A stretch of 64,000 nt of DNA from a bacterium (lineage in GTDB: Bacteria; UBA8248): the NCBI GenBank assembly GCA_963692865.2, contig OY843592.1:480001-544000 (forward strand). Reading direction: 5' to 3'. Positions within the stretch are counted from its first letter, which is position 1. Each line of letters starts with the position of its first letter. Both the position numbers and the translations under genes were made by a program. The notes beneath the pieces are model-generated. The model was not told where the DNA came from. It searched no databases and worked only from the letters and a program-made list of their open reading frames with translations. This document shows positions 26,953-42,808 of the stretch, one piece after another.

Positions 26953-27068
26953 TTCCGGCGACGACCCACTCTCCCACGGAAAGGACCGCAGTACCATAGG
27001 CGCTGGCGGGCTTAACTGCCGTGTTCGGGATGGGAACGGGTGTGGCCCCGCCGCTATAGCCACCGGAA
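26953..27068 (-). rRNA. rrf: 5S rRNA
   Basis: Reverse complement contains CCCGTTCCCATCCCGAACACGG and GATGGTACT-like conserved segments. Ends approximate. Confidence 0.95.
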
Positions 27069-27150
27069 ATTCCTGAAATTCCCGACAATCAAATCACGCG
27101 ATTGGCGACATCAAGCTCCCGGCCGAGAACCGATGAGAGAAATCTCGAAT

Positions 27151-30141
<2,991 letters not shown>

Positions 30142-30295
30142 GAATCTTGAGATTTCAGATCCTCAGCCAATACTGAGAGCCTTCAATGATTATGCCAATT
30201 CACGCGATTCGATTGTCAAAGAGCAAAAGGCGGAAGAAACTCCCGCCCGGATTGCTGAAGAATTCAAATTCATCGTCCACAGCCGCCGGTTCAGA

Positions 30296-30371
30296 TGGTG
30301 GAGATGAGCGGGCTCGAACCGCCGACCTCCTGGTTGCAAACCAGGCGCTCTCCCGACTGAGCTACATCCCC
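30296..30371 (-). tRNA. tRNA-Ala(UGC)
   Basis: GGGGATGTAGCTCAG...TTTGCAA...GGTTCGAG...CCA in the rrn spacer. Confidence 0.96.
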
Positions 30372-30496
30372 ATCTCAGATTCCGCTTCAGGGAACGGCCC
30401 GCGACGATGAGCCTGCTCGGCTCCGCTCAACGGTCCATCCACGCCATCGCTCCCAGGCGTTTCATGTCATGCGCCTCGTCCCCGACCATCCCGATA

Positions 30497-30573
30497 TGGT
30501 GGGCCTACCTGGATTTGAACCAGGGACCTCGCGCTTATCAGGCGCGCGCTCTGACCAACTGAGCTATAGGCCC
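30497..30573 (-). tRNA. tRNA-Ile(GAU)
   Basis: GGGCCTATAGCTCAG...CTGATAA...GGTTCAAATCC...CCA in the rrn spacer. Confidence 0.96.
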
Positions 30574-30888
30574 GCGACCTCGCCCGCGCGATCTTGAATC
30601 CAACTACCGCGTCGGGACTCACCCAGGCATTCGGCCCAAATTCAAATGCAATCGAATCCGGGACAATTCGCATACCCGCTGTGGCGTTATTCTCAAGAAC
30701 AGGATATGGACGGCCCGAGACGGGCCATCGACCTTGAAGCGCCGATTCGTTCTGCAACCATCCTGCCATACGCCAAGGGCGCAAGGCGGCGTCGCACGAT
30801 CTTCAGGCAAGTGAGCGGCTTGTTCTCACCGGACGGCGAAAACGCCCTCTCTCCCCTCCCGTGCTTTTTGAAAACGAATCTTTCAGCA

Positions 30889-32447
<1,559 letters not shown>

Positions 32448-40318: not shown

Positions 40319-41131
40319 TCAATTGCGATTGAGCCCCTGCTTGCCGCGCGTCATGAGTATGCGCTTCCAGAATTCCTCGCGCTCAAGGATAAGCTCATCC
40401 GACGTTCGGCCGGCTCGATGCTCCAATAGAGTGAACCGAAAATGAACACGGCAATAATCCATTCCTCCTTGGGCGTCGAGCCACGCGCTCAGTTTGACAT
40501 TTCCGCCATGGCCACTCTCGACGTATTCACACCAACGGGACCACACTCCATGATCGCCATAGGCGGAGCCGACGTACCGTTTCTCCGCTTTCGTGTCGGT
40601 GATCAAATACACGCCTTTGACGCTCTCAAGCGCCCCTTTCCAGTCCGGCCTGTCGTTTCGCACCATTGTCTCCAACTCTGCGAACGACAGGTCTACGTCC
40701 TCATAGCCGGGAAAAGAACGGCCCGAATAAGTCTCCCGGAGGATTTCCTGAACCTCGAAATTTTCAAAATGCTTCTCGAATTTGAGACGCGTTCCCCGGC
40801 CTCTAAAGGGGGATCGCAACTTGAGTCGTCCGATGAATTCCTTTCCTTGATCGGTCAGTGCAACTTCGTATCGATCGGCATGACGCTCCACGACCTCGAA
40901 TACGCCGCCGAAAAGCCACATATCGGTTTCGTGGTAAAACTGCATCAAGGAAAAAATGTAGGGCCGGTTGAAATCGTTATTCTTTGGCCGATACTCCTGC
41001 CAACCTCGCCAAGCACGCCTGTCGCTCAGCCAAACCTCCAACGGCTGGGATACGCCGTTCCATCTGGCGAAATGAACTTTGAAGTCTTCAGGGTGATTTA
41101 TTGACCATATATCTTTCAAAAGTATAGTCAT
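40319..41131 (-). CDS. GIY-YIG nuclease domain protein
   Basis: C-terminal GVYLITD....RYVGSAYG..G...RW..Y and RE..WK....GLN.N. Lower GC than its neighbours. Confidence 0.85.
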   Translation of the reverse strand: MTILLKDIWSINHPEDFKVHFARWNGVSQPLEVWLSDRRAWRGWQEYRPKNNDFNRPYIFSLMQFYHETDMWLFGGVFEVVERHADRYEVALTDQGKEFIGRLKLRSPFRGRGTRLKFEKHFENFEVQEILRETYSGRSFPGYEDVDLSFAELETMVRNDRPDWKGALESVKGVYLITDTKAEKRYVGSAYGDHGVWSRWCEYVESGHGGNVKLSAWLDAQGGMDYCRVHFRFTLLEHRAGRTSDELILEREEFWKRILMTRGKQGLNRN

Positions 41132-41210
41132 GCTTTCGATATCTTTCCTGGTTGTCGGTATCGCTATGCATGCTCCGAGGTATCGGCTTCCGGTTCAACA
41201 ATCATTCAGT

Positions 41211-41242
41211 AAAAAAGCGCCCGACGGCAGACGGGCGCTTTC
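41211..41242 (-). terminator. Intrinsic terminator of the AhpD-like pair
   Basis: AAAAAAGCGCCCG...CGGGCGCTTT hairpin. Confidence 0.7.
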
Positions 41243-41258: not shown

Positions 41259-41864
41259 TCAGGACGGCAGGGGCACGTCTTTTCCGTAGATTTGCTCGGA
41301 CTGCGCCTGCGTGACGGGGTTTCCCTCCGGATCGTGCAAGGGATAGGCCTTGAGCGTGCGCATGAAGACCTGAAGGCCGTAGTGAAGCGCCACCATCGCG
41401 CCGATCTCCATGATCTGGGCTTCGGTGAAGTGCTTCTTGCCCTCGTCGTAGAATTCCTTGTCGAGCCTCGCGGCGTCGCGGTACATCCAGTAGGAAAACC
41501 GAAGCGCCCACTTCTCGGCGTCGGTGAACTGCGGGTCGTTCTCGAAATCCCCGCAGGCGGCCTCGATGCGCTCCTCCGTCAAGCCCTCTTTTTTCGCCTG
41601 CTCGGAGCGCAGGTTCGCGAAGTAGGTGTCCTGCGCGGTTCTGGCGAGCTGGATGCGGACCATCTCCTTGAGCTTGTGGTCCACCCCGCCCATGGCGTGG
41701 GAGCGGTGCATGGCTTCGTGCAGGGCGCCGGCGTAGCCGGGCGCATGGGCCATGATGCGCGAGAAGAGTTCATCGGGCGCCTGGGTCTCGGCGGTGCGCC
41801 CCATGACGCGCTTCCAGTCCTTCTCCTCGATGGCTTCGGGTTCGAGCGGATTGATGATCGGCAT
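41259..41864 (-). CDS. AhpD/carboxymuconolactone decarboxylase-like protein lacking the redox motif
   Basis: GGVDHKLKEMVRIQLARTAQDTYFANLRS; paralog of the upstream gene, starting 2 nt after its stop. Confidence 0.85.
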   Translation of the reverse strand: MPIINPLEPEAIEEKDWKRVMGRTAETQAPDELFSRIMAHAPGYAGALHEAMHRSHAMGGVDHKLKEMVRIQLARTAQDTYFANLRSEQAKKEGLTEERIEAACGDFENDPQFTDAEKWALRFSYWMYRDAARLDKEFYDEGKKHFTEAQIMEIGAMVALHYGLQVFMRTLKAYPLHDPEGNPVTQAQSEQIYGKDVPLPS

Positions 41865-41866
41865 GG

Positions 41867-42538
41867 CTACCCCTCCCGGCTTCCGTCGGCCCCTTGCGCC
41901 TCGCCCTCTTCGAGCGCTCGCGCCAGCGGGCCGCTCATGTGCGAGACGGGGCAATCGCCGTAGATGCGCCGCGATTCCTCCTGGCTCACGAGCCTGCCGT
42001 CGGGGGAGAACATGGGGTAGAAATCGAGCGTCCGGAAAAAGGTATGGTAGCCCACGTTGAAGCCGATGAAGGAGCCGAGTTCCACGATTTCCTCATCCGA
42101 GTAGTGCCCGCGCAGCCTCGCGTAGAAGGCTTCGTCAATCTTCTCGGGCTCGGAATCCATGAGTTCGCTGTATTCGAGAGCGAGTTTCTCGGCTTCGGTG
42201 AAAAGCTCGCTCTCGCGCCAGTTGTCGATGCCCTCGTCTATCATCTCTTCCGTCAGGCCCGCCTGCTTCGCCGAAGCAGAACGCACGTTCCCTCAGTAGT
42301 TGCAAAAGGCGCGGCGGGAGAGCTGGACGCGGATGATCTCCTTGAGCTTGTGGTCGATGACGCCGGTGTTGAACACCGTTCCCCAGGCGAGGTACATCGA
42401 CTTCGCCAGATCCTCGTTGTGGCCCTGCATGGCGTGAAAGGCGGGGTCGGGCGCGCGGTGCTTGAGCGCCTTGTTGAGGAAAGGAGCGAGTTTCGTCTTC
42501 TTCAGGTCCTCGATGTCGAGCATGGTGATGTTGGACAT
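41867..42538 (-). CDS. AhpD-like selenoprotein with CxxU motif, 223 aa
   Basis: ORFs 42293..42538 and 41867..42286 share a frame: DHKLKEIIRVQLSRRAFCNY-TGA(42293-42295)-GNVRS. Hairpin CUGCUUC-GGC-GAAGCAG at 42263-42279; AAGGAG RBS. Confidence 0.88.
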
Positions 42539-42597
42539 ATGGACAATCTCCTTACAGGATGACGAATAAAACCGTATTATCGGCTAACGCCTCAGGC

Positions 42598-42808
42598 GCC
42601 GCTGAAAAAGCCCCGATGAACGATGGCTTGACACGAGCGAAGAGCGAGCGATTGCGACGGTCGCCATTCGAGGGAGTTTGTAGGGGTCGCATACATGCGA
42701 CCCTGATTTTTCGCGTCTCCCGCGAACGGGCCGCATATTATGCGGCCCCTACAATCGGTCCCTACAAAAAGCAATCCACCCCTCCTCGGGCGGCTTTCTC
42801 AACAATCT
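42598..42808. repeat. Degenerate MITE with a GTAG-type REP doublet
   Basis: GCTGAAAAAGCC...GGCTTTCTCAAC ends, enclosing GTAGGGGTCGCAT..ATGCGACCC and GGGCCGCAT..ATGCGGCCCCTAC. Confidence 0.55.

Follow-up and report, generated by a model that had tools for sequence, protein, structure and literature searches.

The window analysed here is a 64,000-nucleotide (nt) stretch of bacterial DNA (GTDB lineage Bacteria; UBA8248; assembly GCA_963692865.2, contig OY843592.1, positions 480,001 to 544,000 of the forward strand). It carries two adjacent genes, gene 1 and gene 2, whose products are paralogs of the AhpD/CMD fold. Gene 1 holds an in-frame TGA within a C-x-x-U motif, and gene 2 has lost both redox residues of that motif. 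Coordinates are window positions, and both genes lie on the minus strand. The central features are as follows.

42538..41867, minus strand: gene 1, AhpD/CMD-fold selenoprotein of 223 residues, with TGA read as U82 in C79-N-Y-U82 and the stop codon TAG at 41869..41867
42293..42295, minus strand: selenocysteine (Sec) codon UGA, residue 82 of gene 1; TGA stands at the aligned codon in all readable loci
42263..42279, minus strand: selenocysteine insertion sequence (SECIS) hairpin, 7-bp stem CUGCUUC/GAAGCAG, loop GGC, starting 13 nt after the UGA
41864..41259, minus strand: gene 2, redox-dead paralog of 201 residues, with D79-T-Y-F82 in place of C-x-x-U and the stop codon TGA at 41261..41259
41619..41630, minus strand: gene 2 codons 79-82 (D-T-Y-F), the remodelled former redox site, fixed for D/Y/F with synonymous codon variation

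The gene 1 translation runs from DHKLKEIIR to FCNYUGNVRS around this site and can be written ...DHKLKEIIRVQLSRRAF-C-N-Y-U-GNVRS..., while the corresponding part of gene 2 reads ...DHKLKEMVRIQLARTAQDTYFANLRS..., or ...DHKLKEMVRIQLARTAQ-D-T-Y-F-ANLRS.... The gene 2 ATG follows the gene 1 TAG after 2 nt. In a BLASTP alignment of the two proteins that spans 199 residues (E 2e-42), 34% are identical and one gap of 1 residue occurs; the C-terminal tails align as well. The redox dyad is present in gene 1 (C79-N-Y-U82) and absent from gene 2 (D79-T-Y-F82). Four positions past the second redox site, both proteins have Arg86 and not His, with at least 90% conservation in each alignment. A first-pass annotation of this DNA had already described the in-frame TGA in C-N-Y-U, a perfect 7-bp GGC-loop hairpin 13 nt past it, the 2-nt spacing with full-length alignment, the loss of both redox residues from gene 2 and the missing His in both proteins; all of these were recovered here.

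Selenocysteine codon, SECIS hairpin and Sec machinery

The pair was followed through several samples. A genome scan with the gene 2 profile, taking one genome per species, gave 225 related loci, the best 80 of which were examined; a metagenome-contig scan supplied 80 loci, with the gene 1 site found in 67; and 51 genomes of the phylum were scanned at match thresholds of E <= 1e-50 for gene 1 and E <= 1e-40 for gene 2. The aligned gene 1 codon is TGA in 78/78 readable genome loci and in 67/67 metagenome loci with the site. A gene 1 match occurs in 43 of the 51 phylum genomes, each with one internal TGA (43/43). Gene 1 is conserved on both sides of the TGA in one frame, with a mean column identity of 74% over its whole length in 29 orthologs, and its orthologs are 61-97% identical across the 78 genome loci.

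Bacterial SECIS elements, by criteria of the bSECISearch type, are stem-loops shortly downstream of the UGA with a G in the apical loop. The hairpin of gene 1, 13 nt past the UGA and with GGC in its loop, has this form. Among 63 distinct sequences, 99.5% of the cells of the 7-bp stem are paired, and the second pair (18-32), never unpaired, occurs as C-G in 32 sequences and as U-A in the other 31. The stem codons GCT TCG GCG are invariant at synonymous sites and AAG is nearly so, one AGG being the sole change, whereas synonymous variation is free in the immediately preceding Gly, Asn, Val and Arg codons. Part of the invariance of gene 1 at residues 87-91 reflects dual coding with the SECIS. One more compensatory pair appears in a single-gene homolog described below (CCGCUUU-GGC-AAAGCGG). 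Taken alone, the 71-nt hairpin stretch folds with an energy that is not unusual (z -0.45), and no Rfam SECIS family matched at gathering thresholds, nor at E up to 10 on 42180-42330, a null that is no test for a bacterial SECIS. Therefore, the case for the SECIS rests on the comparison between sequences.

The host genome (4.15 Mb, 8 contigs) encodes Sec machinery over curated cut-offs, with selB at 391.7, selA at 567.2 and selD at 334.6 bits, and ARAGORN found tRNA-Sec (tca) twice in the assembly. The tRNA-Sec genes lie at 1207500-1207596 of contig C1 and at 29715-29811 of a second contig; the contamination estimate for the assembly is 6.7%, and the second copy may be foreign or a duplicate. 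The selD match (G000:C1:65915-66877, outside the window) holds one in-frame TGA, and the selenophosphate synthetase is probably also a selenoprotein.

No Cys form of a gene 1 ortholog occurs among the 78 genome and 67 metagenome loci. Among more distant representatives (27-45% identity), CxxC stands at the gene 1 redox site in 63 of the 101 alignments that cover it; the exchange of C and U in homologs, which the first-pass annotation had proposed as a check, is thus found at that distance, with Cys at the TGA position. Public gene callers split gene 1, and the database mostly holds its relatives as 120-140-residue pieces, beginning at the VRS behind the TGA or shortly past it. Seven full-length database entries read W at the Sec position, as a code-4 TGA would give. 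An alternative genetic code is ruled out, since gene 2 itself stops at TGA and a tRNA-Sec is present. The gene 1 TGA thus encodes selenocysteine, and the orthologous group is Sec-only.

Fold and active site of gene 1

Gene 1 scores 29.8 bits against the Pfam family CMD (PF02627; cut-off 23). Its model shows an all-helical AhpD-like fold with a predicted local distance difference test score (pLDDT) of 83.3 and a predicted template modelling score (pTM) of 0.81. The nearest solved structures are Atu0492, the debrominase Bmp8, Deinococcus radiodurans AhpD and PA0269, and the Foldseek probability is 1.00 to 2gmy, 6ohj, 6k40 and 2ijc. The assignment of gene 1 as a CxxU selenoprotein of the AhpD/CMD fold is therefore supported by TGA conservation, the CMD match and the modelled fold alike. 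Against NCBIfam, gene 1 stays below the cut-off of TIGR01926, the peroxidase-related enzyme family (36.7 versus 81.8), and both proteins stay below that of NF053654, the YciW-related (seleno)protein family (69.6 for gene 1 and 37.7 for gene 2 versus 310); gene 1 and gene 2 are related to the scored NCBIfam families and are not members of them.

In M. tuberculosis AhpD, His137, four residues past the second Cys, is the proton-relay His. Glu67, 12 residues before the first Cys of gene 1, and Tyr81, between the redox residues, reach 90% conservation or more in both proteins. A published layout of this kind is that of the Ralstonia eutropha protein YP_296737.1 (2PRR; TIGR01926 type; structural match Z 17.5), which shares the size class of about 190 residues and the Glu...C-x-Y-C arrangement. 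The spacing of its Glu74/Cys86/Tyr88/Cys89 (PMC4674687, consulted in part) is identical to that of E67/C79/Y81/U82, the equivalence of E67/Y81 to Glu74/Tyr88 being judged by spacing and not by structural overlay. As far as the consulted part of that source goes, 2PRR differs in being a homodimer of identical active subunits, in using Cys and not Sec, and in having His93 at the +4 position where the present proteins have Arg86.

Gene 2, a maintained Cys-less paralog

Gene 2 passes the CMD cut-off barely, at 23.8 bits, and the ESM Atlas returned only unnamed CMD clusters for it. It has 392 database relatives, with 50-90% identity among the matches listed. The motif region could be read in 132 of 240 stored database proteins: 119 have DxYF, 3 DxHF, 1 DxCF, 1 DxYY, 7 CxYW and 1 CxYC, the last being the query itself with C written for U. 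Asp, Tyr and Phe occupy the former redox site in 69/69 loci that match the flanking pattern, and their codons vary synonymously (GAC 42 and GAT 27, TAC 46 and TAT 23, TTC 57 and TTT 12). D79 and Y81 are invariant in 29/29 alignment rows.

In a numbering common to the two proteins up to residue 194, 58/194 positions of gene 2 are at least 90% conserved versus 97/194 of gene 1. Both are conserved to that degree at 46 positions, including H63, K66, E67, R70, R75, Y81, R86 and S87; beyond these, a further 51 positions are conserved in gene 1 and 12 in gene 2. Ten of the 46 are fixed differences from gene 1 to gene 2 (F56H, S74A, C79D, U82F, V85L, S110D, V152M, G159A, N161H and H165Q). In seven comparisons with close relatives, the ratio of nonsynonymous to synonymous substitution rates (dN/dS) lay between 0.09 and 0.30 in gene 2 and between 0.03 and 0.16 in gene 1. 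These substitution patterns indicate that gene 2 is under purifying selection. A role as a Cys 'backup' of gene 1 under selenium shortage is ruled out, the gene 2 site being without Cys.

Pairing across genomes

In 78 of the 80 genome loci the two genes share a strand, with gene 1 immediately upstream of gene 2; the other two are cut by contig ends and still show a C-terminal piece of gene 1. Within the phylum, gene 2 is present in 39/51 genomes and gene 1 stands beside it in 39/39, with both genes in 22/22 genomes of the host's own genus. The co-occurrence that the first-pass annotation had suggested examining is therefore strict. The records that hold the pair are titled Nitrospinota (the closest, 90-96% identical), Tectomicrobia, Rhodospirillales/Rhodospirillaceae, Defluviicoccus, Acidimicrobiia, SAR324 and Burkholderiales/Betaproteobacteria.

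A gene 1 match unaccompanied by a gene 2 match occurs in four further phylum genomes. A contig end cuts gene 2 after 70 residues in G037, and in G036 it is gene 1 itself that is cut. The remaining two (G007 and G009) carry a divergent single gene with C-S-Y-U and no paralog within the 3.5 kb examined. No other conserved neighbour accompanies the pair beyond close kin; the Nitrospinota-type clade alone supplies the loci with a nearby class-III aminotransferase gene (24) or FAA-hydrolase-family gene (19). The gene pair is a self-contained module that occurs in several phyla.

Most genome loci have 0-43 nt between the two genes. In nine Burkholderiales/Betaproteobacteria loci (L063, L071, L073, L074, L083, L088, L090, L092 and L097) the spacer is 81-472 nt versus 0-43 nt elsewhere. 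In several of these the frame before the gene 2 start reads similarly, as ...LRLSAA(K/E)MPY..., which suggests conserved or repeated sequence in the spacer.

Natural fusions and structural models

In thirteen database protein clusters (281-371 residues), the portion of gene 1 that follows the TGA is fused through a low-complexity linker to a whole gene 2 domain. Two complete fused frames were confirmed in DNA, both in the order gene 1-linker-gene 2, both with the TGA kept and with unrelated linkers. One (L059) encodes 426 residues on a 314-kb SAR324 contig; the other (L106), on a 22-kb metagenome contig, has a Pro/Ser-rich linker and the Betaproteobacteria-type motif S-C-V-Y-U.

The SAR324 fusion was modelled with AlphaFold2 from an alignment of 56 natural sequences. 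The model has a pLDDT of 88.5 (86-88.5 over five models), a pTM of 0.87 and a disordered linker at residues 204-235. A pTM of 0.87 is unreachable with freely floating domains of about 200 residues, and the predictor therefore sets both domains confidently together. The best solved match, over both domains, is human Sestrin2 (Z 23.8, root-mean-square deviation 3.4 A over 291 residues, model 16-417 on chain 66-474), a superposition that concerns the natural fusion and not the two separate proteins of the window. Single domains of the same model reach VIA-align Z values of 15-17.6, with a maximum of 17.6. The fusion is thus predicted to adopt the canonical AhpD-family dimer arrangement.

Among the distant representatives, three proteins of 350-408 residues (P0266, P0295 and P0350) contain AhpD-like stretches twice in tandem. 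P0295 and P0350 have CxxC in only one of the two (CKFC/CDSE and CSHC/TNQS), and P0266 has C-x-x-W in both, perhaps from a pair of TGA codons translated by code 4.

Probable origin by duplication

A quick maximum-likelihood tree of 88 rows was computed with support from the Shimodaira-Hasegawa-like approximate likelihood ratio test (SH-aLRT) and rooted at the midpoint; it included 33 gene 1/gene 2 pairs, two single-gene forms and 20 database representatives hand-picked from 150 listed, and no careful search was finished. The gene 1 clade and the gene 2 clade group together as sisters (SH-aLRT 97), with the two single-gene CxxU homologs outside this grouping. Support is 86 for the gene 1 rows and 98 for the gene 2 rows together with the DxxF representatives, and CxxC representatives fall outside the Sec side of the tree. 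The same subgroups are mirrored in the gene 1 and gene 2 halves, gene 2 having the longer branches.

The two single-gene CxxU homologs (L099, G009:C91:2500-6000, and L100, G007:C76:12400-16000) share 47% identity with gene 1 and 39% with gene 2, with the SECIS at the same place; they are candidates for the ancestral homomeric state. The simplest reading of the tree would be one duplication of a Sec single gene, with the redox dyad lost in one copy and the pair inherited or transferred as a unit. The root and the unfinished tree search set a limit on this reading.

A database protein of 181 residues (P0061) sits at the base of the gene 2 clade. It is an apparent chimera, its first ~70 residues resembling Burkholderiales-type gene 1 and the rest gene 2, with D-S-Y-F, as would result if the DNA from one conserved LKEIIR segment of the pair to the other had been deleted.

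Expression signals and surroundings of the pair

The following features, read from the sequence or found by consensus scans, flank the two genes.

42548..42553, minus strand: Shine-Dalgarno-like AAGGAG, 9 nt before the gene 1 ATG, a putative site read from the sequence
41870..41877, minus strand: Shine-Dalgarno-like GGGAGGGG in the end of gene 1, just 5' of the gene 2 ATG, read from the sequence
41208..41233, minus strand: terminator-like hairpin (41233..41218) and T run after gene 2, from a consensus scan
42793..42776: second terminator-like site, closing the upstream aminotransferase gene, from a consensus scan

With terminator-like sites after gene 2 and after the upstream aminotransferase gene, the pair looks bicistronic. 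Translational coupling from gene 1 to gene 2 is likely, judged from the Shine-Dalgarno-like stretch ahead of the gene 2 ATG. A consensus scan found no sigma-70-like promoter upstream of gene 1 on the minus strand. RNA-library contigs of close relatives (sponge metatranscriptomes, ~93-95% alike, records 4 and 6) span the TGA and the gene junction and fit, weakly and short of proof, expression of the pair as one unit.

The 270-nt gap upstream of gene 1 contains an imperfect long palindrome (42679-42756; TGTAGGGG...CCCCTACA) that encloses two GC-rich hairpins, one of which scores as terminator-like on the plus strand. Downstream of the pair lies a 270-residue open reading frame (ORF; 40319-41131, minus strand) without a Pfam family at E <= 0.001. 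The window also holds a complete rRNA operon (5S, 23S, tRNA-Ala, tRNA-Ile and 16S) at 26953-32447 on the minus strand.

Discussion

Previously, AhpD-like CxxU selenoproteins were reported in 2005 from the Sargasso Sea, with 27 sequences in COG2128 (PMC1088965). The Global Ocean Sampling survey of 2008 placed 'AhpD-like 1' fourth in rank, with 299 Sec and 902 Cys members (PMC2398784), and reviews of 2022 and 2026 list AhpD-like selenoproteins (PMC9312934, PMC13188914); all four sources were consulted in part. Gene 1 resembles these marine metagenome proteins in fold family, the CxxU motif, a SECIS just downstream and marine uncultured hosts, and it is likened to 'AhpD-like 1' (COG2128) by the CxxU motif and habitat. 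In the parts of the 2005 and 2008 papers that were consulted, however, single genes are described and a Cys-less partner gene goes unmentioned, and the gene 1 group is Sec-only, unlike the published AhpD-like 1 with its Cys members. The host genome itself has an unusually large AhpD-like selenoprotein set. Eight further AhpD-like genes have an in-frame TGA at C-x-x-U followed by x-x-H-N, with the canonical His present (near 101667, 165197, 293485, 2351776, 2678430, 2988308, 3416560 and 3935715 of G000:C1, outside the window), and one paralog near 3198484 has C-H-F-C.

The combination of an active AhpD-like domain with an inactive one also has precedents. Sestrin2 joins a redox-active Sesn-A to a Cys-less Sesn-C of another role in twofold pseudo-symmetry, and the two domains overlay the homodimer of the AhpD-like protein YP_296737.1 (2PRR) (Kim et al. 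2015, PMC4674687, from the parts consulted). Sestrin2 (PDB 5dj4, 5t0n and 5cuf) and the present pair are alike in this combination. Sestrin2, however, is one chain with the single Cys C125, whereas the pair is usually two genes with Cys and Sec; and the helix-turn-helix of Sesn-C is replaced by a DD loop for GATOR2, whereas gene 2 keeps the motif region as D-x-Y-F. With 12% identity in the structural alignment and no specific kinship shown, the pair would work alike and is not classed as a sestrin. In bacteria, a 2024 review presents single-chain proteins of two AhpD domains, one a Cys-less 'pseudo domain', as sestrin analogues on the basis of AlphaFold models, with fused examples from Corynebacterium ureicelerivorans and Comamonas aquatica and with E. 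coli YciW (PMC11429811). In the consulted part of this review, the CxxC domain is C-terminal and the Cys-less domain N-terminal, an order reversed in gene 1-gene 2. Relative to the proteins so described, the present active site has Sec, nearly all loci carry the two halves as separate genes, and the residues that took the place of the dyad are fixed.

Two further relatives of the fold bear comparison. M. tuberculosis AhpD is a trimer that works with AhpC and lipoamide. Its structures (1knc and 1gu9) carry CxxC on the same CMD-fold helix-turn-helix and match weakly (Z ~10), the motif standing elsewhere in the chain, and the neighbour analysis of the loci found no AhpC or lipoamide genes linked to the pair. 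The tetrabromopyrrole debrominase Bmp8 (6ohi and 6ohj) is the best PDB sequence match to the gene 2 profile (E 8e-9) and a top structural match of the fusion model (Z 17.6). It is 19-22% identical and has the catalytic Cys that gene 2 lost, and bmp-type neighbours are absent at the pair. Bmp8 shows that the thiol of this fold can serve non-peroxide substrates.

The first-pass annotation did not recognise the arrangement as described. This stands for the dedicated partner: no paper on a selenoprotein of the AhpD-like family with a dedicated Cys-less partner gene was found in a search that lay outside the selenoproteome supplements and Haft and Tolstoy 2025 (mSystems), the latter of which could bear on the point. 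It does not stand for the components, as the CxxU family has been known since 2005 and pairs of active and Cys-less domains are known from Sestrin2 and the fused bacterial proteins. What is known, then, is the AhpD-like CxxU selenoprotein, and what is new is its fixed pairing with a redox-dead paralog as a separate gene.

We consider, at a probability of roughly 0.6, that the two-gene operon encodes the two halves of one AhpD-like redox enzyme, likely a 1:1 heterodimer. UGA-82 of gene 1 is read as selenocysteine under the direction of the hairpin 13 nt downstream. On this proposal, the resulting C79/U82 centre would cycle between the selenol-thiol and the selenenylsulfide states, aided by Glu67 and Tyr81. 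Gene 2 would be a duplicate of such a selenoprotein gene that lost its redox residues (Asp79 and Phe82) and was then retained by purifying selection. The two proteins would form an obligate 1:1 heterodimer in the canonical AhpD-family dimer arrangement, as Sestrin2 does in one chain, and by the fusion model they probably work as one sestrin-shaped pair. Only the gene 1 subunit would carry out redox chemistry, by reducing a peroxide or an oxidised thiol in a protein or small molecule. The gene 2 subunit would be the obligatory second half of the dimer, its remodelled non-redox pocket docking a partner or ligand. The Sec codon of gene 1, the strict pairing, the selection acting on gene 2, the natural fusions and the modelled packing of one fusion are shown, and they support the heteromer indirectly. 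That the separate proteins bind, and their stoichiometry, their chemistry and the role of the dead pocket, we infer. Peroxide or thiol-disulfide chemistry is the default of the family, and by analogy the substrate may differ, given the missing His and the example of Bmp8. A more specific form of the proposal appears unlikely: a split bacterial counterpart of the sestrin design, an obligate heterodimeric selenoenzyme in which the gene 2 pocket (Asp79/Tyr81/Phe82 with His56 and His161) binds a ligand or partner and gates or targets the Sec centre of gene 1.

Several observations weigh against the heterodimer. CMD/AhpD proteins are normally homo-oligomers, and the predictor may pick the modelled packing by likeness to solved family dimers and Sestrin2. 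Fusions are rare (1/78 genome loci, and 1/59 metagenome loci with both sites found), and some of the database 'fusions' could be assembly or sequencing errors. The RNA-library contigs could include DNA and are no proof of one common transcript, and the evolutionary part depends on a quick, midpoint-rooted tree in which the gene 1 clade has a support of 86. With the proton-relay His absent at +4, classical AhpD chemistry cannot be taken for granted, and no neighbouring gene points to a substrate or reductant.

A first alternative is that the proteins are co-expressed and stay separate, each a homo-oligomer, with gene 2 a non-redox enzyme or ligand binder in the pathway of the selenoenzyme. Solved relatives have several identical chains per entry (2gmy, 2ijc, 6k40 and 3c1l among them), the residues fixed in gene 2 alone (D79, H56, H161 and D110) could make a new active site, fusions are rare, and by the spacers of up to 472 nt in some Burkholderiales loci tight translational coupling is not universal. 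However, two independent in-frame fusions with different linkers, a fusion model that sets both domains confidently as a pseudo-dimer, strict synteny across phyla with no third conserved gene, and gene 1 and gene 2 subtrees that mirror each other are less readily accommodated by separate homo-oligomers, and we regard this as a real though clearly subordinate possibility.

Two further explanations were weighed. If gene 2 were a dead, decaying duplicate carried beside gene 1, the loss of both redox residues and its faster evolution (longer branches, higher dN/dS and fewer conserved positions) would follow naturally; yet its frame is intact in all examined loci from several phyla, its dN/dS is 0.09-0.30, Asp, Tyr and Phe are fixed at the former site over synonymous variation, and its 392 database relatives keep 50-90% identity among the matches listed, so that this explanation is close to refuted. 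Likewise, a TGA that is a true stop, leaving gene 1 broken or as a pair of short ORFs and making the hairpin incidental, would agree with public gene callers, which cut there (most database relatives being fragments of ~125-140 residues), and with the unremarkable single-sequence folding energy and missing Rfam match. It is refuted for practical purposes by the TGA kept in every readable genome and metagenome locus within a protein conserved on both sides in one frame, the compensatory stem change and frozen synonymous sites, the full Sec machinery of the genome, and the Cys at the aligned position in 63/101 distant alignments.

AhpD-like CxxU proteins are among the commonest selenoproteins of ocean metagenomes. 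If the present branch does need its redox-dead partner, expressing or assaying the selenoprotein alone may fail or mislead, and it would be advisable for annotation pipelines to merge the two ORF fragments of gene 1 and to mark gene 2 as the partner. The Sec-only orthologous group is useful for asking why Cys cannot substitute. Should the proposal hold, the family would also offer a natural example of the passage from a homomer to an active/inactive heteromer with all stages extant (single gene, pair and fusion), in parallel with the proposed origin of eukaryotic sestrins. If, furthermore, the unlikely form with a gating gene 2 pocket held and gene 1 belonged to the marine 'AhpD-like 1' group, the pair would provide the first mechanistic model for that family, in which the enzyme is active as a two-protein unit only.

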